From an uncultured Spirochaetota bacterium (GTDB taxonomy: Bacteria; Spirochaetota; Brevinematia; Brevinematales; JAOACQ01), in contig CAWIGG010000005.1 in assembly GCA_963835575.1 (NCBI GenBank), forward strand, positions 160,001-224,000: DNA of 64,000 nt, in the 5' to 3' direction. Of this stretch, positions 683 through 10,670 are shown in pieces. Every line of letters starts with the position of its first letter. Within the stretch, counting starts at the first letter, position 1. The notes beneath the pieces were generated by a model. It was not told the origin of the DNA. It saw nothing but the letters and a program-made list of their open reading frames with translations, and did not search any database. Both the position numbers and the translations under genes were made by a program.

Positions 683-2360
683 GAGTCTGTCGCAAAAGCA
701 ATAAAACGAATCAGCAATGTCCTATTGAAAATGGCTTTTTTAAAATTTTATAACTTTCTCGGGTAATATGATCACTCAGTCCGGATTTTTTACTATTTTC
801 AGTCCCCTAATCCTACAATTTAATCCCCAAAGCCGCCATTTTCCTGAAATTGTACGCAATGCAGACCATATGCCAGATAGTGTTTACACTATCCAGACCG
901 CGGTAGTAAAACCTTCCGAAGTTGAAGTACTCTTTTATCGTCCCGAAAATGTGCTCGATCAGGCAGGCACGCTCATTGTAAGTTCTTTTACCTTCAATAC
1001 TCCTAAGCTTTTCCTTCATCTTGCGCCTTAATTCAACCGTTTCAAAATATTCATACTTTACATTAAACCGTTTGTTTTTTAATGCTTCCAGCTTACCGGC
1101 GCAATTTGAAAGCAGCTTGCACTTCCTGCACAACTCGCGCTTTGGATAGAAACGGTAATTCTTGACTCCCCGATCATTATAAGCTCTTTCCGCGCACATA
1201 ATCTGGCCTCCGGGGCATTTGATTTTCCTGATATTACCGTCAATTATTAATTCACAGTCTTTGGATGTTATTTTATCCTTGTTCTTTCTCTTTTTCGGAC
1301 TTCCGTCTTCTTCTTTTCCTTCGGGGATATAAAGGTCGATCTTTTTATCTTCACCGTATTGGATATTATCCGATGTGAAATATCCGGCGTCCAGCGTGAA
1401 CTTTGTGTCTTCCTTCGGCTCTTCCTGGTGATCCATTACTTCCTCTATCATCGGGACAGCAAGGTTACGGTCGCTTGCGCAGTCTGATACCATCGCGCCG
1501 GTCAGAAATTCATTTTTACTGTCAACGGCGGCCTGGCAATTATACCCGGGGCCGATTGATCCGTTATTCATTTTCATTAACCTGGCGTCTTTGTCTGTCA
1601 GGTTTACGCTTTCCGTTTCGTCTAAATTCCTGTCCTCAACTGTTTTCAGAAATTTATCTATCCCGGATTTCTGCTGTTCAAACTTCTTGAGTTTATTTGC
1701 CATCCTTTTGGAATATTTATCATCGGTATTGCTGTTCACCGTTTCCTGGAGGATTTTTAAGATCTTTTCCTCGATTTTATCCTTTTTATCCCGGAATTCC
1801 TTCGCATTCCCCGTGAAATTCCTGTTGGCCGATGCCTTTATCTTTGTACCGTCTATAGCTTCCAGTTCATAACTGATAAAACCCGATTTCGCCAGAATGT
1901 ATACCATTTTCCCGAAAATACTAACGATTTCATCCAGGTATTTATTGATAAATCTACAGATATTACTGTGGTCAACGGTGGTATTTCCCGCGAGATAAAT
2001 CGTGTTCAGGTCGTTTTTCATCCTTTTTTCTATTTTACGTGAAGTGTAAATACCGGACGCGAAGCTGTAAAACAGGACTTTCAGCATCATTGTAGGGTTG
2101 ACCGCTTTTGCTCCCGTTGTTTGATTCCGCAGTTTAACGGCAAATTCAGCGGGGGAAATATAGCTCTCAACATAATCGTCAATGACTTTGACCAGCAGAT
2201 TGTTTTCCCTGATTTTGTCGGGATCGACGGTCAGCCAGTAGATTTGATCGCGAATATATTTTTTGAATTTCCCCAGCATTTGACACCTCTTAAATATGGT
2301 TTTATTATATTCTATCGTAAGTTATGAAAAATGTACATGAAGAGCTTTTGCGACAGACTC
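683..2360 (-). mobile_element. IS1182-family insertion sequence
   Basis: Perfect 17-bp TIR GAGTCTGTCGCAAAAGC (683-699 / 2344-2360); 4-bp target duplication AGCG (679-682, 2361-2364). Confidence 0.92.
813..2279 (-). CDS. IS1182-family DDE transposase
   Basis: DUF772-like N-terminus (PTMMLKVLFY..SRKIE), AIDGTKIKA, TDKDARLMK, GYNCQ, LDAGY, IEHIFGTIK. Confidence 0.92.
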   Translation of the reverse strand: MLGKFKKYIRDQIYWLTVDPDKIRENNLLVKVIDDYVESYISPAEFAVKLRNQTTGAKAVNPTMMLKVLFYSFASGIYTSRKIEKRMKNDLNTIYLAGNTTVDHSNICRFINKYLDEIVSIFGKMVYILAKSGFISYELEAIDGTKIKASANRNFTGNAKEFRDKKDKIEEKILKILQETVNSNTDDKYSKRMANKLKKFEQQKSGIDKFLKTVEDRNLDETESVNLTDKDARLMKMNNGSIGPGYNCQAAVDSKNEFLTGAMVSDCASDRNLAVPMIEEVMDHQEEPKEDTKFTLDAGYFTSDNIQYGEDKKIDLYIPEGKEEDGSPKKRKNKDKITSKDCELIIDGNIRKIKCPGGQIMCAERAYNDRGVKNYRFYPKRELCRKCKLLSNCAGKLEALKNKRFNVKYEYFETVELRRKMKEKLRSIEGKRTYNERACLIEHIFGTIKEYFNFGRFYYRGLDSVNTIWHMVCIAYNFRKMAALGIKL

Positions 2361-2611: not shown

Positions 2612-2702
2612 AACTCCCGTAGGCGACTCCCAAAAGACAGGCTCCTGGTTTACTCAAATATTTCTTTTCTAACAATCCCTTCCCGTCTTGTAAGCTATAT
2701 TT

Positions 2703-2913
2703 TGGAGAAAAAGTTTACAAAAAATAATTCTTCAGTAGAATACCTCCTTGTGGAAGTTGTTGCTCACTACCCGCCTGCCTTCTGGTTTGAAACCAAGGCA
2801 CACAGGAAGATTGCCAACTCCACAAGGACCGTTTTGGTCTCTTAAAACAATTGCCAGGATATTCCCTTGAATAATCCTGTCGCTCATTACAAGGGTGCCG
2901 AAATGGAACGGTC
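2703..2913 (+). ncRNA. IS110 bridge RNA (5' stem-loop, target-binding loop, donor-binding loop)
   Basis: Three predicted stem-loops: 2703-2734, 2746-2827, 2827-2913. Internal loops match the junctions: TACCCGCCT ~ TTCCCGTCT, ACAGGAAG = rc CTTCCTGT, TAAAACAAT = right end, TTACAAG = rc CTTGTAA. RNA ends are approximate. Confidence 0.8.
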
Positions 2914-2931
2914 TGATATTTTAATCTGCTG

Positions 2932-4606
2932 TTGCCTGTCGGTTTTTATAACATGCTTCATGGACATACGGCAGGGTTCCCGTTAAAATAAAACGGGAGA
3001 AAAAGATGGCAAGATTTGAAAAGAACAGCCTGGAGCAGGGTGAGTTCCTCGCGATCAATATAGGCGAGCAGTTTGATGAGAATTCCAGAGAATTTATACT
3101 AAAAGAATTCATCAAAAACCGTATTAAACTGGAGGATTTCGCGGCTTACTATAAGAACGACCATAGAGGCAGAGAGATTAAAAATCCTCGGGATGTGATC
3201 TGTGCGGTACTCTACGGTTACATTACGGGAAATCGTATCAGCCGAAAGATAGAAGATTTGCTGAAAAAACACATTGGGTTTATGTATGTTTCAAACCGGC
3301 TGAAAATTGACCATTCGGTAATTTGCGAGTTCAAGGTACTTTTTCAGGAAAAGATCGAGGAGTTGTTCAGCCAGCTTTTATATATACTCAACGAAATGGG
3401 GTCTATAGATTGGGACATGGTAGTGGGTGACGGCACAAAGATCAAGGCCTACGCGAGTAAGAATAAGAATGTGGGAAAGAAACATACCCGGAAGCTGATG
3501 GACACTTACCAGAAGATGGCGGAAAAGATTGTGAAACAAGACCTGGAACTGGAAGAATCTTACCGGGAAGGCAAGCTGGAGCAGCCTTATTACGAAGCGG
3601 AGAAGAAGCGGGTATCAAGGCGGAAAAAGATTTACGATAGTGTTTTGAACCAAATCGATGAATACAAAAAACAGGTAGAGAGAGGGGAAAAGACAGACGA
3701 AGAATTCACCAACCTGACTGATCCCGAAAGCAAGCTGATGTCTGGAAATCCGCATAGTGTGTTTATACAGGGATATAATTCGGCGATGATGGTCAGTAAT
3801 AATGATGTGATTATAGATTTTGAAGCAATCACAACACCGGAAAAACAGCATACGGAAGAAATGGTAAAGAGGGTGGAACAGAAAAAAGCGGAATTAAAAG
3901 TTGATAAGGCTAGCAAATACCTTTTTGATTCGGGTTTTCAGGACATGGAAGAGACAATCCGGATGGTGGAGGAAGGAAAAGACCTTTATGTGGATACGAA
4001 AGAGCGGGATTTCAGTGATAAATCACAGAAGCGAAGAGACTTTAAACTGGAAAAGATTGATGACGAATATATCCTGGGATGCCGGGGCGGCCGTAAGGAA
4101 AATGGGTATTTAGATCGAAATAACCAAAGATATACATTTTTGTATTCACGGAAGGGCTGTGAAAGATGTCCATTTTTCAGTGAGTGTTATAAAAACATCA
4201 AACCGAAAACACAGCAAAAGACAGTAATTTTCAGTGAGTTTGAATTGAATAATCGGTCTAAGATTGATGCTTATTTAACAAAACTTTACAGCGAAGAAGG
4301 GCAAAAGATATACAACCGCAGGATAGGTAAAGAACACGTATTTTCAAACATCAAAACACAGAAGGGTTATGTTCAGACAGTTTACAGAGGTCAACGGAAA
4401 GTGAATTTGGAGCTATGCTGGGTATCCCTTGCGCATAATTTTATGAAATATGCCCAATATTTGAGAAAATAGAGAGGATTTTGTATAGTCTGAGTATCGA
4501 TTATTCGAAATTTATTATTAAAATCAGCTAAGCTGACAAAATTTTTATTTGCCCGCTTATTGTAAGGGGCTGGTTTGACTCCGAAAATGAAATAACCGAC
4601 AGGCAA
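2932..4606 (+). mobile_element. IS1182-family insertion sequence nested in the IS110
   Basis: 13-bp TIR TTGCCTGTCGGTT (2932-2944) / AACCGACAGGCAA (4594-4606); 4-bp duplication GCTG (2928-2931, 4607-4610). Confidence 0.9.
3006..4472 (+). CDS. IS1182-family DDE transposase
   Basis: SRKIEDL, DGTKIKAYAS, TDPESKLM, QGYN, FDSGF, EHVFSNIK. Confidence 0.9.
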   Translation: MARFEKNSLEQGEFLAINIGEQFDENSREFILKEFIKNRIKLEDFAAYYKNDHRGREIKNPRDVICAVLYGYITGNRISRKIEDLLKKHIGFMYVSNRLKIDHSVICEFKVLFQEKIEELFSQLLYILNEMGSIDWDMVVGDGTKIKAYASKNKNVGKKHTRKLMDTYQKMAEKIVKQDLELEESYREGKLEQPYYEAEKKRVSRRKKIYDSVLNQIDEYKKQVERGEKTDEEFTNLTDPESKLMSGNPHSVFIQGYNSAMMVSNNDVIIDFEAITTPEKQHTEEMVKRVEQKKAELKVDKASKYLFDSGFQDMEETIRMVEEGKDLYVDTKERDFSDKSQKRRDFKLEKIDDEYILGCRGGRKENGYLDRNNQRYTFLYSRKGCERCPFFSECYKNIKPKTQQKTVIFSEFELNNRSKIDAYLTKLYSEEGQKIYNRRIGKEHVFSNIKTQKGYVQTVYRGQRKVNLELCWVSLAHNFMKYAQYLRK

Positions 4607-4619
4607 GCTGGAGGAAAAA

Positions 4620-5894
4620 ATGCTAATCCGGGATGCTATCGGGATTGATCCCGATTCACAACAGTATGTGTGTATGTATGTCAAAGCGGAAGACTGGAAA
4701 ACGGAACGGAAAGCCTTTCCGGTTACCACAAGCGGCCTTGATAATCTGATCGAATGGACTCGGTCGAAAAATGACCCGATTATCGCCATCGAGGGAAGCA
4801 ACGGGCAGAGTAAGCCCTTAGAGAAAGTGCTTCGTAAGGAATCGATGACCTATTACTCGTTTAAAGCAAGGGATGTTGAACAAAAGAGGAAAAGCCAGCT
4901 CCCGGCGGGAAAGAACAACGAAAAGGATGCTCATGCCGCCGCTCTTTTGGCTTTAGAGCGTGAAATGAACGGTTCTCTGGAAAAATGGAGAAGGGTCTAT
5001 CCTGTTGACAGCGAATTACAGACGATAACCCGGAAATATGAAAGTGTAAGCGGCAGGATCACAGAGGAAATATCCGGGCTGTGGAAGCTTTTATGCGAGG
5101 CTTCCCCGGATGTTTACCTGTTCTTAAGCGGCAAGAATATGGAGACGGATAACAGACGTAATGTTTTGAATAGCGCAGGAGTACTGAATTTGCTGTGTAA
5201 TTGTCCCGATTTAAGCCAATGGAGGAGATTAAGCGCGGAGAAAATGAAAGAGCTGATGGGTGGAGGCTCTTATAGAGGCCGGGATAAGACCATCGCCGGC
5301 TTACAGGTAATAGCCCAAAGAATCTTGGGTGTAGCGGGCCCCATTTCCATGATGATCCGGCAATCTGCTGAAAATATTATTCTTTTGAAAGGCCATAAGG
5401 AAGAAATGAAGAAGATTTTGGATAATCTGGCTGAATCCAGGGAAGCTGTCCGGGTTTTAGCCTATGACGAATCCAATGGCAATGGGTTGAAAGGAATCGG
5501 CGTGATCACTGCCTCTACGATGATAGCCGAGATTATTCATATCAATCGTTTTGTTAAAGAGGACAGCCTGGCGTTATATGCGGGATTCGGTATGGTGGAA
5601 GATGAAACCGGAAAGAAAAATAGGGGTGAAAGAAAGAAGATGAAACATACTCACGATTATAACCGCCGTTTGAAAAACGCCTTTATGAACGCGGCCAAGA
5701 ACTTTGTTCACTGGAATCCGGACCACCATATTTCCGGCATGCACAGGAATTTGATAAAAAATGGAATGAGCAGGCTCGAAGCGAATAAAAGGGTTGCCAG
5801 AGCATTAGTCCGTAAGATATTTCGGATATTAAAGGACTATGAGTCTGAAAATATAAGGAAAATGGAAGAAAACGGGGTGGCAAAAGTGGGTTAG
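4620..5894 (+). CDS. IS110-family DEDD recombinase/transposase
   Basis: IGID, IAIEGS, KNNEKDA, GIGVITASTMIAEI, LALYAG..ETG, NRRLKNAF, RVARAL; GGAGG RBS. Confidence 0.9.
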   Translation: MLIRDAIGIDPDSQQYVCMYVKAEDWKTERKAFPVTTSGLDNLIEWTRSKNDPIIAIEGSNGQSKPLEKVLRKESMTYYSFKARDVEQKRKSQLPAGKNNEKDAHAAALLALEREMNGSLEKWRRVYPVDSELQTITRKYESVSGRITEEISGLWKLLCEASPDVYLFLSGKNMETDNRRNVLNSAGVLNLLCNCPDLSQWRRLSAEKMKELMGGGSYRGRDKTIAGLQVIAQRILGVAGPISMMIRQSAENIILLKGHKEEMKKILDNLAESREAVRVLAYDESNGNGLKGIGVITASTMIAEIIHINRFVKEDSLALYAGFGMVEDETGKKNRGERKKMKHTHDYNRRLKNAFMNAAKNFVHWNPDHHISGMHRNLIKNGMSRLEANKRVARALVRKIFRILKDYESENIRKMEENGVAKVG

Positions 5895-6093
5895 AAACCC
5901 TGCGGAAATATTCCGCGAGCAACACCTCCATTTTCTTCCGCCTTTATTATATCGAACTACTGAGGTTTTTTAAATATTTTGATCGTTTTTTTCTTGACTT
6001 AACTAAAACAATCTTCCTGTTAATTTACCCCCCAATTCGCGTCCATTAGCGTGCATTCGCGGATTATCCATCGGTCTCCCGCGAATACACAAT

Positions 6094-6124
6094 AAAAAAA
6101 CCCGGCAAATAATTGCCGGGTTTT
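6094..6124. terminator. bidirectional intrinsic terminator
   Basis: A7-CCCGGCAA..TTGCCGGG-T4, just past the VWA gene stop. Confidence 0.75.
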
Positions 6125-6140
6125 ATTCTGTTATACCATT

Positions 6141-7559
6141 TTATTTCTTCTTCTTAATCTCCCCTTCATCGAACACGATCGTGGCGCCGCCGACATTCAG
6201 AACATCGCCGGATTCCAGTATTTTTGTCTTGACGGGCTTGTTGTTGACCATCACATCTTCCTTGCTCTTAAGCGTGTAGACCTGGGTCTTGCCGTCGAAT
6301 ATGATCGTCGCATGCTCGTCTTTGACGGACGGCGCGTTCATAATGGTCAGGTCCGCGTTTTTAGACCCTCCGATGATCGTCTGGCCCTTATTTAGTAACA
6401 GCGACTTGCTGATAATCGTTCCCTTCGGCGCGTCCAGAACTTCCAGCATGGGTTTTGTATTCGTATTCTTAAATTTAATGAGCGACAACAGCCATAATAA
6501 TAGAAGGGCAAGAAGAAGCGCCAGAAGAAGCCAGAGGGTAAATTCCTTTAAAGGCATGCCGAAGAGGACGCTCGAAAAATAATACCGGGTCGAGCTTACC
6601 TTGCTGTTATCACCTGCTGTCATATCCACTTTTACATATTTTTTGAGCGCGGGCTCCATTCCTGCCTTATAGGTGATCATAAACTCATTCAGGATCTGCT
6701 CTTTGATCCTGATATAAATATTCTTCAGTTCTTCCTCGTTTTTAGCGTCAAACACCACGCCGCCCGTGTTCTGTGAGATTGTTTTCAGACCAGTGTCCTT
6801 TTTATCGTTGCCGTAGTTTATAACAAATACCGACACGCCTTCCATCAGGCTTTTTTCAATAGCTTCCTGGTATTTAAAAATCTTTGTGCCGAAATCCTTG
6901 TGCGGCTTTTTGACATATTCATAATAGGGCATATTCTCGCCATCGGAAAGAATGATGACGGCTTTTCTGCCCGACACCTGTTTGAAATCTTCCATGGCCA
7001 GATACAGGCTTGAATAAATTTCAGTCCATGCTTCCTCGCTGGACGGTTTCTTGATCTCATTCAGGTAATTCGCGATCTTATTTTTATCATTAATGGGCAT
7101 TGAATAAATAGTATAAAATGAATTAAAGGAAGCGATCCCGACCGTGTCCCTCTGGTTTTTTATGCTCTGAAGAAAATTGACAATGGCTTTTTTCGCGCTG
7201 GAGATCCGCATATTATCCTCATCCGGGGTTTCCCTTCCGTTAAAATCATCATACATACTGCCGGAATTATCCAGAAGCAGAAGAAAATTAATACCGTTTT
7301 CATAATTCGCTTCCGGCTTGAAGTTCAATATTTTAACCGGTTTGAAATTCTTCTGGTCGGCGGATTCAGATACATTAAACCTGTTCTGCTCGATGTTTTT
7401 TACAGGATTACCCTTATTGTCCAGAACGCTGATGTATAAATTAATTTTCTGATTAAGCAGTAGACGGGAATTATCAATCTGCGAGATATTGACAGAATCG
7501 CCGAACACCCATTGAAAGACAAGAAATGATAAGACTATCAAAATAGATTTTTTAAACAT
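6141..7559 (-). CDS. signal peptide + VWA domain + TM helix + C-terminal FHA-like domain
   Basis: MIDAS LLLDNSGSM, IILSDGEN; Leu-rich TM; C-terminal IIGG..HATI..LESGDVLNVG. Confidence 0.85.
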   Translation of the reverse strand: MFKKSILIVLSFLVFQWVFGDSVNISQIDNSRLLLNQKINLYISVLDNKGNPVKNIEQNRFNVSESADQKNFKPVKILNFKPEANYENGINFLLLLDNSGSMYDDFNGRETPDEDNMRISSAKKAIVNFLQSIKNQRDTVGIASFNSFYTIYSMPINDKNKIANYLNEIKKPSSEEAWTEIYSSLYLAMEDFKQVSGRKAVIILSDGENMPYYEYVKKPHKDFGTKIFKYQEAIEKSLMEGVSVFVINYGNDKKDTGLKTISQNTGGVVFDAKNEEELKNIYIRIKEQILNEFMITYKAGMEPALKKYVKVDMTAGDNSKVSSTRYYFSSVLFGMPLKEFTLWLLLALLLALLLLWLLSLIKFKNTNTKPMLEVLDAPKGTIISKSLLLNKGQTIIGGSKNADLTIMNAPSVKDEHATIIFDGKTQVYTLKSKEDVMVNNKPVKTKILESGDVLNVGGATIVFDEGEIKKKK

Positions 7560-7631
7560 AATTTACTCCTTTTCCGTCAAAGTCCGCCGGCAGCGCTTTA
7601 CGCCGCATGCGTCTCTGTATGGAATATATTT

Positions 7632-8522
7632 TTAACTATACTTGAATAAAAACTTCGCGCTGCCGATCTGTATGACATCATCAAGCTGCAGTTCTTTCTG
7701 CTCGGCAGCATCATCATTAACTTTGATCCTGCCGTTCTTCGCCTTGTTTTTAATGCTGACATTTATCCCTTTGGCTATCACTTCGGCATGATAAGATTCA
7801 ATGTCTTCATAATCCGAAAGCCTGATGTCGCTCCAGCCGGAAGTCCCGATCCTTATCTTTCTCTGATTGATCAGGAATTCCTTCCCTTTATACTTACCGT
7901 TCAATAACCTGAGGACCCCGAAAGAAAACGAGCTTTCGATAATTCCGTAAAAAAAGCCTATCATCAGCCCGAATACCAGGAACCCGATCAGCCTGGCGAT
8001 CAGGAGATTATTGATCATGAGGGGGAGATACTCTACGGCCAGCCCTCCTATGATGCCGCCGATAAGACCGCCCAGAAAACCGACCTTCATTTTATTAAAT
8101 GAAAGCGAGCGGAAGCCTTCCGTCATGCCGATAAAAATCCCCAGTATGGCCCAGCCCCCGGCCCGCGTCAGAGGCACGGCGATCTTATTAATGCTGGAAA
8201 CGGAATGAAGCAGTTTATCCCCGACTATGAATAACGCCGCCTGCCCGGCTAAAAAACCGGCGGCTCCGCCGATAACGCCTACAATAGCGCCGGTAATGAC
8301 GCCTTTCAATATTTTGCCGCTATCCGCCAGAATAATGCCTTCGCTGGAGCCGAAAAAACCGCACATAAAAATTCCGACAATGACTCCCAGGGTTATGCTG
8401 AAAATTAAATAGGAAGGAAATTTTGCCTGAAATATGATGATTGATTCCACCATGGCCCACGAAGCGAGCCCGCCGAGAAGTCCGATAATTGAAAGAAAAA
8501 CCCTTTTCATTAATGTTGACAT
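7632..8522 (-). CDS. Gly-rich multi-TM protein with C-terminal FHA-like domain
   Basis: About 6 hydrophobic helices; IRIG..YHAEV..LQLDDVIQIG. Confidence 0.8.
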   Translation of the reverse strand: MSTLMKRVFLSIIGLLGGLASWAMVESIIIFQAKFPSYLIFSITLGVIVGIFMCGFFGSSEGIILADSGKILKGVITGAIVGVIGGAAGFLAGQAALFIVGDKLLHSVSSINKIAVPLTRAGGWAILGIFIGMTEGFRSLSFNKMKVGFLGGLIGGIIGGLAVEYLPLMINNLLIARLIGFLVFGLMIGFFYGIIESSFSFGVLRLLNGKYKGKEFLINQRKIRIGTSGWSDIRLSDYEDIESYHAEVIAKGINVSIKNKAKNGRIKVNDDAAEQKELQLDDVIQIGSAKFLFKYS

Positions 8523-8547
8523 ATTCTCACTCCTTCTAAATTATTAA

Positions 8548-8760
8548 GGGCAGTTTCAGAACTGCCGCCTTTGTTTTTAATCATGCTGCCCCTCACCATT
8601 TTGTGAACTCCAGCGGTGCAGCCCCAGCAAAATGGTGAGGGGCAGCGTCGTTTTTATTAACCAAAAAGCTTTTTATATCCGGGGCAGTTTCCAATCCCCG
8701 CGTCAGTTTATTTGCTTCTCAGATGCCGATATATAGACTCGTGCAGGATTGGAACTGCAC
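8548..8760. repeat. MITE/REP-like palindrome cluster (GGCAGTT..AACTGC family)
   Basis: Nested inverted repeats (GCTGCCCCTCACCATTTTG / CAAAATGGTGAGGGGCAGC); shares TTTTTATTAACCAAAA and GGCAGTT ends with 47108-47270. Confidence 0.6.
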
Positions 8761-8761
8761 C

Positions 8762-10670
8762 TTATTTAATCCTTAAGTTAATTTGATCGTTTTTGACATC
8801 ATAATCCACATAAACATTTTTATAACCGTCGGGCGTAATATTGATCGATTCCGATTTTGTCTTTTCACCTTTCTTAATAGTTAAAGTATAGTGTCTGGAA
8901 GCAAGCAGATATTTCTGGCCGCTCTGTGTTGTCGTATTAATTTTAACATACTTTTTATCTTCCCCGCCGGTGTAACAATAGGCATGGTCGTCCAGAAACA
9001 CTTCCAGCCCGTCATAATTTGACTTGATAAAGAGCGTTCCCGCTTTCGGGACAAGATACACATTGATTTTCACTACCGTTTCATAATGACCCACCGGTAT
9101 TGTGATTTTTTTAGGGAGATACCCTTTTTTTTCAAATTTAAAGTAATACTTCTTGCTGTTGACAAGCATGTTTTTCAACCTGCTTTTGAAAATCGCCCAC
9201 TTGATCCATCCGTAATTACCAAACACGGAAATATTCACATCATCCAGCTGGGTTTCAACGTCCCTGTCATAAATATTGAACCGGATGTCCATGGGCAGCA
9301 AGGGAGGCGCGGAACGGCTGATTTCTATTTCATCAGCCTTTGACGGGAATTTATAAGATTCCTGTACGGCGACAGGCTCTACAAATATTTCCCTGTAATA
9401 CTTTTCATTTTCGGCTGTCAAATCGAACCTGTATTCCCTGGACGGCAGATAAATTTCATCCGACCTGTATACATTAATATTACCTTTGGTCTTAACAGCA
9501 TTATTCAGGCGGCAGATGACTTTCGCGTATTCGGAATAATTATCATTTTTATTTTTATAAGACAGAGTCCCTGTCATATAATCTTTATCGCCGGTCATAT
9601 AAGCCTTATCCGCTTTTACAGTGATCCTTATTTTTCCATAGCTGTCTCTTGCAAAAAGGTCATAATAGAGGCCTTTATAATAAAGTAAATTGAATGCTCC
9701 GGCCAGAATTAATAAGCTGAAAGCTGTTTTTAAAACAAAAGTCCCGATATTAAAATACTTAACTTTCGGGAGGCTTTTAACTTTCTGAGTATATTCGTCG
9801 CCGAAAACATAATTCCTGATGGCGTCGTTAATTTTCTGCTGTGTTTTGAATTTTCTGAGATACGGCCCCAATTTCGCTATGACAACGCCCAGATCGTTAT
9901 AGCGGTTTTTCGCCCTGTGATGCATCATCTTCCTGATGATGGACTGGACCCTCGACGGGACATGCGGATTGATCTTGCGGGGCTTTTTATACTTGCCCTT
10001 CTCTATAAGCGATATTGTTTTGGCGGCCATATCGGACGAAAAAGGCAGCTTGCCTGTCGTCATGAAAATAGAACAAAACCCCCATTGAAAAAATATCCGC
10101 CCTTTTATCCACATTCTTGCTGTCCGCGATCTGCTCAGGCGCCATGTAGGAAGGGGTACCAAGGGTCGTGCCTTTCTGGGTCAAACCCGTTTCCGTATCA
10201 TCCTCGGATTTAGCGATGCCAAAGTCGGTCAGTTTGACTTCCCCTTCTTTTGAGATGAGTATATTCGCCGGCTTGATATCCCTGTGGATAACGCCCTTGT
10301 CATGAGCGTATTTCAAACCCTTGCATACCTCTAATAAAATGAGTACCGCGGCCTCGTTTGACAGATGCCTTTTCAATTGAATAAGCTTGTCCAGGCTTAT
10401 TCCGTCGATATATTCCAGGACTATATAATATGATCCGCCCTCCCTGAAATGATCATAAACCTGCACTATATTCTCGCTTCTGAAGTTGAACATAATTTTG
10501 GCTTCTCTTTTAAACCTTTCAACAACCCCTTCTATTCCCTTGAGATTGAGCTGTTTGAGGATTATAAAGCTTTCCAGCGTGGGGTGTTTTGCTTTATAGA
10601 CAGTTCCCATTCCGCCCGAAGCGATTTTTTCTATGACAAGATATTTACCAACTTTTTCCATCATGTCCAT
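8762..10670 (-). CDS. Hanks-type Ser/Thr kinase + TM + extracytoplasmic PEGA-like region; one frameshift near 10065-10068
   Basis: GGMGTVY, HRDIKPAN, TDFGIA, GTPSYMAPEQ. Removing one base from the A4 run joins ...GVLFYF to MTTGKLPF. May be a pseudogene or a sequencing error. Confidence 0.8.

Follow-up and report, generated by a model that had tools for sequence, protein, structure and literature searches.

What is the 3,328-bp insertion near one end of a 64,000-nucleotide stretch of DNA from an uncultured Spirochaetota bacterium (assembly GCA_963835575.1, contig CAWIGG010000005.1, positions 160,001 to 224,000 of the forward strand; hereafter the window), and how does it select its sites? A first-pass annotation, made from the letters alone, had read it as a single, complete IS110 bridge-recombinase system. 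We found that the span consists of two elements, a 1,649-bp IS110 element and a 1,675-bp IS1182-family element nested within it. We consider it likely that the IS110 element is active and works like IS621, with a threonine standing where the IS621 recombinase has its catalytic serine. Coordinates below are those of the window, on the forward strand unless stated otherwise.

The IS110 element is present in six copies in the genome. Four are plain (1,649 bp); the other two measure 3,328 bp and carry the IS1182 element at the identical base. The first-pass annotation had looked to other copies for the same ends, and the ends are identical in all six. The left CT core (2687-2688) is a boundary common to every copy, and the right CT core with the right target arm TCCTGT in host DNA (6013-6020) is the same at all six insertions; each copy is inserted at the 2-bp core without any other duplication. 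Only four positions vary among the copies, two of which split them into two haplotypes of three. The element is thus recently mobile. Its left end is ~250 bp long and its right end 118 bp, the latter carrying a -35 box, TTGACT (5994-5999), and the left-donor arm TAAAACAAT (6004-6012; together 5994-6012), a combination that the genome has at these six copies, at one truncated sister and nowhere else. That sister (G000:C2:1329628-1330118) is 85% identical and has the same right end, followed by CT-CTGTGG, i.e., another type of repeat word. No end-to-end inverted repeat of the element was found among the 25 longest inverted pairs, and membership of the IS1111 group, in which inverted repeats are sub-terminal and the right end carries the RNA, was ruled out because the RNA here sits in the left end, upstream of the gene. 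The contigs listed for four DNA runs include no circle junction, although contigs cannot show absence, and a plasmid search returned only four weak protein matches and none to the left end.

The left end would encode a bridge RNA with a target loop and a donor loop. A hairpin around the target guides (2746-2827), whose consensus stem is paired in 99.9% of cells in 55 aligned sequences, holds a left target guide of 8 nt plus core (CTACCCGC-CT, 2767-2776), assigned by position and by co-variation, which is seen at -1 to -6 and again at -8 but is weak at -7; a right target guide of core plus 5 nt (2803-2809; A2802 matches too in this copy); and a handshake guide AT (2810-2811), which is the complement of the two donor bases that precede the core and reads AT in 66 of 82 parsed loci. 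A second hairpin, around the donor guides (2828-2914), shows compensatory changes in six of nine inner-stem pairs. It holds the left donor guide TAAAACAAT (2843-2851) and the right donor guide TTACAAG, the reverse complement of the core plus TGTAA, followed by the handshake guide GG (2894-2895; together 2887-2895). By its position, G2894 would correspond to IS621 G166; it faces C in two and T in four of the six copies. The first-pass annotation had placed both junctions with their CT cores (2687-2688, 6013-6014) and four guide strings (2768-2776, 2802-2809, 2843-2851, 2887-2893), and these match letter for letter. Its reconstructed target and donor are supported, as is the IS621-type layout that it proposed, with left and right target guides (LTG, RTG) and left and right donor guides (LDG, RDG); the string at 2843-2851 is identical to 6004-6012.

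Co-variation across homologues also bore out the expectation that the loops would track target flanks (36-39 distinct guides). We drew 94 homologue loci from two scans and used 86 of them, the other eight having little or no upstream DNA; together with one plain copy of this genome they made 87, and the 82 that could be parsed gave 71 distinct target loops. Scored over 36 distinct guides, right target positions +1 to +5 agree with the guide in 33, 35, 32, 30 and 33 (null 10-12), while +6 agrees in only 10 (null 8.1). An 8-nt right guide is therefore rejected: core plus 5 nt of the string first proposed (2802-2809) co-varies, and its eighth base does not. Left target positions -1 to -8, scored with the register chosen on other positions, match in 36, 30, 35, 31, 30, 29, 22 and 28 of 39 distinct guides. 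Position -8 is above its null (28/39, null 26%), with all four bases taking part, and it stays above all 500 shuffles when one locus is taken per protein cluster (0.69 and 0.67 with 30 or 18 clusters). A still longer left arm is rejected because -9 (7/38) and -10 (9/35) are at background; -11 matches in 12 of 21 (p 0.03). The left target arm is thus probably 8 nt, not 7. The donor TAAAACAAT-CT-TGTAA is almost invariant in the clade, and the donor guides match it. One homologue (L020:2700-3000) has a degenerate donor loop and an intact target loop, and an intact relative (L019) lies on the same contig.

The right guides had been put forward as unusually long. Their co-variation ends at core plus 5 nt, i.e., 7 nt, and long guides are not new in themselves, since longer right target guides in some orthologues, with a tested 7-bp extension, are described in PMC11208160, and one element with predicted guides of 10, 9, 9 and 8 bp is reported in 10.64898/2026.08.14.744561.

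When folded, the left end forms two hairpins, each with an internal loop (z -4.47; none of 200 shuffles reached this stability). This part of the fold drawn in the first-pass annotation therefore holds. Its 5' hairpin appears in the window copy, at about 2703-2734, as a possible hairpin of the junction-promoter transcript (centroid structure with upstream bases), and the 40 nt before the target loop carry no fold signal across 66 homologues (mean z 0.0). Stem covariance in homologous RNAs was found as well. In an alignment of the window RNA with 54 of 68 homologous RNAs (near-duplicates removed by eye), 13 of 30 consensus pairs show compensatory change, above 500 of 500 shuffles and with all slid controls lower; relatedness of the RNAs can inflate this shuffle test. 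Rfam gave only weak chance matches, outside the RNA. In dinucleotide shuffles of the left end, all three exact guides recurred in 0 of 20,000 and two in 3. The 7/9 left-target match is present and co-varies, yet it recurs alone in 5,580 of 20,000 shuffles and so carries weight only through its position and co-variation. The bridge-RNA reading therefore holds: target guides and flanks change together, the stems show co-variation too, and the junction promoter described below is conserved. On these sequence comparisons, RNA-guided insertion in the manner of IS621 is very likely.

The sites that this guide would read are a genomic repeat. The left target arm (2679-2686) is a single 8-nt repeat word, CTTCCCGT, and this word or a one-base variant is found at all six insertions, whose targets share the form TTCC[CT]G[CT]-CT-TCCTGT. 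The exact target that had been reconstructed from the junctions occurs empty 11 times in the genome against 0.035 expected under an order-5 Markov model. The wider form is empty at 18 sites, none of which lies inside an open reading frame (ORF) of at least 150 aa, although such ORFs make up 80% of the genome. Target sites are the ends of tandem arrays of the 8-nt word, and the genome has 39 arrays of at least two words. A contig of run X2 crosses the window locus without the element; it has one word more and 3 nt fewer, and is therefore a related allele, not a perfect pre-insertion copy. A preference of the guide between penultimate words was not significant (6/24 versus 0/13, Fisher p 0.07). 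The genome has nine genes of what we take to be the GxxExxY type by tblastn (one by the strict GxxExxY pattern), and the reverse complement of a word array precedes one of the nine. Among the homologues, a 59%-identical relative (L018:2807-2979) sits in a related word array (TTCGTGT-CT-CCGTG), with its right guide altered to match. Eleven loci (left flanks of L023, L051, L070, L075-L077, L079, L081, L092, L104 and L105) have TATA ~9-13 nt left of the core, and five of these also have ATCATT to its right, though their guides differ.

The recombinase (4620-5894, 424 aa) carries both PF01548 (49.8 bits, cut-off 29) and PF02371 (49.3 bits, cut-off 21.3) in one ORF, with D10, E58, N100 and D103 and, further on, T330-G331. 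Its predicted model (pLDDT 90.1) has a RuvC-coiled coil-Tnp fold, with IS621 and ISCro4 as best matches at ~15% identity. Thr330-Gly331 (Thr codon 5607-5609) aligns with IS621 Ser241-Gly242, with chain numbering offset by two, and Asn100 (codon 4917-4919) takes the position of IS621 Asp102. In IS621, Ser241 makes the phosphoserine link, and Asp102 hydrogen-bonds Gly242, holding that loop (PMC11208158). Asparagine could make the same loop-holding bond while threonine supplies the hydroxyl. Since its domains and fold are those of the family and two canonical active-site features differ, we class the protein as a variant of the IS110 lineage. We argue from sequence that it works, because the element spread recently, frames are open across homologues (below) and 9 of 15 coding differences from the X2 copy are silent. 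An inverted repeat (5851-5952; 25-nt arms, 76%) spans the recombinase stop codon, and most homologues extend 30-60 residues past the end of the window protein in a low-complexity tail.

Both substitutions are deeply held. Among 120 homologues, position 100 is Asn in all and position 330 is Thr in 116 and Ser in four, always followed by Gly. In a MAFFT alignment with ten other IS110 proteins (those longer than 300 aa among 17 of 33 sources caught by a sequence pattern), all ten have Asp in the Asn100 column and Ser in the Thr330 column. A profile search over 1.84 billion representatives recovered 33 full-length clade proteins, which form one branch (SH-aLRT 100) with Asn in 33 and Thr in 31, and 32 nearest outsiders, with Asp in 32, Ser in 25 and Thr in seven. 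The third DEDD position is thus Asp in 42 of 42 out-group proteins versus Asn in 120 of 120 clade homologues. Threonine is not unique to the clade: that idea is rejected by the seven outsiders and by rows of a published IS110 table (PMC11208160). In the accessible part of that table, strings number QTG 28 versus QSG 266 and KTN 39 versus KTD 564; these are rough figures, since the string fell at the catalytic position in just six of the first 15 rows for QTG and in no row of the first 15 for KNN. Among the 40 loci with both junctions, the recombinase frame is open in 38, and Thr is present in 33 of 37 scored, seven of them without a preceding Ser. A literature search, with most subscription papers beyond its reach, found no paper on an IS110 threonine or asparagine variant.

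Two promoter-like arrangements could drive the RNA. Joining the ends would build TTGACT-N17-TAAGCT, the junction promoter of the first-pass annotation, with its spacing of 17 nt confirmed. The -10 box TAAGCT (2691-2696) overlaps the right-donor arm TGTAA (together 2689-2696). The TTGAC positions of the -35 box are kept in 48-51 of 51 distinct right ends and the T-A-A-n-n-T of the -10 box in 45 of 45 distinct left ends. Inside the left end, a sigma70-like site, TTTACA-N16-TAGAAT (2714-2741), matches the consensus at 10 of 12 positions and lies just before the target-loop stem. Of 67 distinct upstream sequences, 57 have the pattern TTG..-N16-18-TA at the same distance from that stem, against a mean of 4.0 and a maximum of 11 in shuffles. 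This promoter-like motif is placed to start a transcript at the target-loop stem and is a candidate second promoter; its interpretation as an RNA hairpin is unsupported (mean z 0.0; 4 of 66 below -1.5). A 9-mer resembling what we take to be the DnaA box consensus (one mismatch allowed) stands upstream of the motif in 40 of 49 left ends and is missing from the window copy. One such locus (L021:2730-2790) and most long-ended homologues carry tandem TGTGGATA(T/A) DnaA-box-like motifs, often after a G-rich tract; the short-ended subgroup that includes the window copy lacks them and has a -10 box closer to consensus. In the longer-ended relatives, these sites beside the internal motif could link transposition with replication. 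ISPpu9 and ISPpu10 are known to have internal promoters (PMC12288879), and integrated IS621 is reported to depend on weak read-through (PMC13626964). The literature search found no IS110 paper containing "internal promoter" or "DnaA box".

The nested element (2932-4606) separates the RNA from the recombinase gene, so the window copy is not the complete system first described. It has 13-bp terminal inverted repeats (2932-2944 and 4594-4606) and a 488-aa DDE transposase (ORF 3006-4472; PF05598, PF13751, PF01609), whose combination of DUF772 and DDE domains we take to mark the IS1182 family. The element is flanked by a GCTG target-site duplication (2928-2931, second copy 4607-4610), and contigs of runs X1 and X2 join 2927 to 4607, with the four letters shared, i.e., they show the IS110 form without IS1182. 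The genome has 24 copies of the nested element, 16 of which are identical over their length; 16 have a perfect 4-bp duplication and eight have differing 4-bp flanks. Insertion is oriented, at sites that read T-rich, G(C/A)TG, A-rich. Three of the 24 copies are frameshifted or altered in length or frame. In the window copy, insertion left the RNA, both ends and the ribosome-binding site GGAGG (4610-4614, kept through the duplication) intact, but it moved the recombinase gene 1.7 kb away from the promoter, with a terminator-like hairpin (4524-4536) in between. The copy's own recombinase expression is probably reduced. Because its ends and RNA are intact, it is probably movable in trans by the four plain copies. 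Besides this element, the first-pass annotation had overlooked the handshake guides and both changes at catalytic positions (Ser to Thr, Asp to Asn), as well as the promoter-like motif inside the left end, the probable eighth base of the left arm and the fact that the target is a repeat.

Both interrupted copies share the insertion base and the IS1182 sequence. The 3,328-bp unit might then have arisen once and moved with IS1182 as cargo, as opposed to IS1182 landing twice at the same site, and cargo carriage is described as possible for IS110 elements (PMC11187229; 10.64898/2026.08.14.744561). We hold a single origin to be possible, on the doubtful side. The two composites differ at both haplotype-splitting positions (gene conversion or assembly polishing could blur the six-copy haplotypes), the site is of the kind that IS1182 prefers (T-rich, GCTG, A-rich), the chance of two hits when six identical sites are available is P ~0.15 by a rough binomial, and the shared sequence says little because 16 of 24 copies are identical anyway. 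Two independent insertions are plausible, since the composites are on different haplotypes and the site fits the preference.

Together, these data suggest the following mechanism for the IS110 element. By analogy with IS621, the recombinase and bridge RNA would join both ends at the CT cores to form a circle, a step on which 10.64898/2026.08.31.748434, which questions the simple cut-out model, bears. The join would create the conserved TTGACT-N17-TAAGCT, which would drive the RNA and the recombinase gene. The target loop would then select a site by base pairing, reading 5 nt on the right side of the core and, probably, 8 nt on the left, as the co-variation indicates, while the donor loop would read the invariant junction TAAAACAAT-CT-TGTAA. 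The handshake bases AT and G may favour insertion over excision. With its guide aimed at the two words that close an intergenic array of 8-nt words, the element would find safe, repeated landing sites, as is seen in this genome. The main departure from IS621 would be Thr330, the sole hydroxyl residue of the catalytic loop, forming the covalent link to DNA, with Asn100 replacing the loop-positioning hydrogen bond of Asp102. More tentatively, the second promoter in the left end may supply RNA from the integrated copy and let excision start. For the clade as a whole we lean towards a threonine recombinase, i.e., one that forms a phosphothreonine at a D-E-N-D metal site. Its target may span 15 bp (8 + 2 + 5), and its bridge RNA may be transcribed from the internal promoter without prior circularisation.

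Several points weigh against this account. The circle-junction form was rebuilt from sequence. D102A and S241A are each reported to abolish IS621 activity (PMC11208158). The Asp/Asn mapping comes from the motif and MAFFT, and a weak HMMER alignment to IS621 is shifted there; the clade tree is a quick one with no bootstrap. Ser directly precedes Thr in 86 of 120 homologues and could serve there, although it cannot stand in within the window protein, which has no Ser in residues 317-350. On the RNA side, left position -7 is not above null (22/39, p 0.12), so that the left arm is not a clean 8-bp run, and the left guide mismatches all six genomic targets at -6 and four of the six at -1. Finally, the last T of the internal -10 box is found in only 3 of 56 anchored sequences, the window copy among them, so the site would be weak or activator-dependent in most members.

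Could the enzyme be active with threonine only shaping the loop, the chemistry being done by a different residue or by direct transesterification at the metal site? Threonine is beta-branched, no threonine-linked recombinase turned up in the literature search, the clade changed its third Asp along with the Ser, and the neighbouring Ser is common among homologues. We nevertheless judge this unlikely. A hydroxyl residue (Thr 116, Ser 4 of 120) with an invariant Gly occupies the exact nucleophile position, Thr occurs with a normal Asp in 7 of the 32 nearest out-group proteins and at that position in 6 of the first 15 QTG rows of the published alignment, and no Ser is nearby in the window protein. 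It is more improbable still that the Thr/Asn enzyme of a bridge-RNA element is defective and that another host IS110 recombinase moves the copies. Two residues essential in IS621 are altered, and the genome does encode other IS110 proteins with the canonical Asp and Ser. However, those genes are distant and lack the right end of the window element, both residues are retained across a deep clade of 33 proteins, frames are open at 38 of 40 loci with both junctions, and guides track many different targets. That the guide matches are accidental and the repeat is recognised by protein-DNA contact is scarcely credible: the left-target match alone is frequent in shuffles and the six genomic targets, being one repeat, are not independent, but three exact guides never recurred in 20,000 shuffles and co-variation with the flanks over 36-39 distinct guides refutes it.

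Bridge recombinases are under development for genome editing, and the characterised ones considered here in detail are serine enzymes close to IS621. With its recent movement, readable guides and no spare loop serine, this element is a clean natural test of threonine as the covalent link; if the threonine reading is true, it adds a third covalent nucleophile beside those of the serine and tyrosine recombinases. Relevant to specificity are the clade's dozens of natural pairs of guide and target, with a native right guide of 7 nt and, probably, one more base on the left. The promoter-like motif inside the left end, in turn, is relevant to the way in which an integrated element obtains the RNA for its excision. 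Should none of the threonine, guide or promoter points hold, the element is one more IS110 orthologue, ~15% identical to IS621.

Other features flank the insertion. Just upstream (~680-2362; ORF 813-2279, minus strand) lies a second, different IS1182-family element, whose transposase is 28% identical to that of the nested one and which has several further genome copies, one of them interrupted. On the other side, an operon-like run on the minus strand (6141-10670) encodes a VWA-FHA protein, a membrane FHA protein and a Ser/Thr-kinase-like ORF in two frames (8762-10162 and 9987-10670), and ends at a two-way terminator (6097-6124).

Among known systems, the nested element resembles the IS1182 family in its DUF772 and DDE transposase, short terminal inverted repeats and 4-bp duplication, and nothing unusual was found in it beyond its oriented T-rich/GCTG/A-rich preference. 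ISPpu9 and ISPpu10 of P. putida (PMC12288879; 10.64898/2026.03.19.712850) are likewise IS110 elements that insert into intergenic repeats, although they are described as targeting palindromic REP sequences, whereas the window element targets a tandem word array. ISPpu9 is reported to have a native internal promoter and no junction promoter, and ISPpu10 a native promoter together with a strong junction promoter, with a mismatch tolerated at its first left-target position.

A counterpart to the recombinase is protein 0ab1e5bbbfdc7fe2a5 (Spirochaetota, no ISfinder name), an entry in Supplementary Table 1 of PMC11208160, which in the parts consulted makes no remark on the protein's RNA, its target or its catalytic residues. 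It carries the clade motifs IGIDPDS, K-D-N-E-K-D-A and E-Y-S-T-G, which makes the clade a tip of the published IS110 tree, and it retains the Ser beside Thr that the window protein lacks. ISCro4 (IS622; 10.1101/2025.05.14.653916; PDB 9T56), which was described in work that screened 72 orthologues, is the top VIA-align match (Z 21.5, 293 aligned, rmsd 10.7). It is reported to be 88% identical to IS621 with a 14-nt target, and it has the four-guide and handshake scheme in common with the window element.

IS621 itself (PMC11208160, PMC11208158; PDB 8WT6-8WT9) is the top Foldseek match (E 1.3e-10) and has the same order of RuvC, coiled-coil and Tnp domains. The two elements are alike in a left-end RNA with target and donor loops, a CT core, a junction promoter, an A-U target-loop handshake (A81/U82 in IS621; PMC11208158), a repeat target and the lack of terminal inverted repeats. 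They differ in protein length (424 aa here versus 326 aa), with extra helices here between the two coiled-coil helices, and in the Thr and Asn that replace Ser241 and Asp102. The native right guide is 7 nt here and 4 nt in IS621, and the left arm is probably 8 nt here and 7 in IS621, whose RDG is described as spanning seven donor bases discontinuously (PMC11208160, PMC11208158). Finally, the window element has a conserved promoter-like motif inside its left end, in contrast to the weak read-through reported for integrated IS621.

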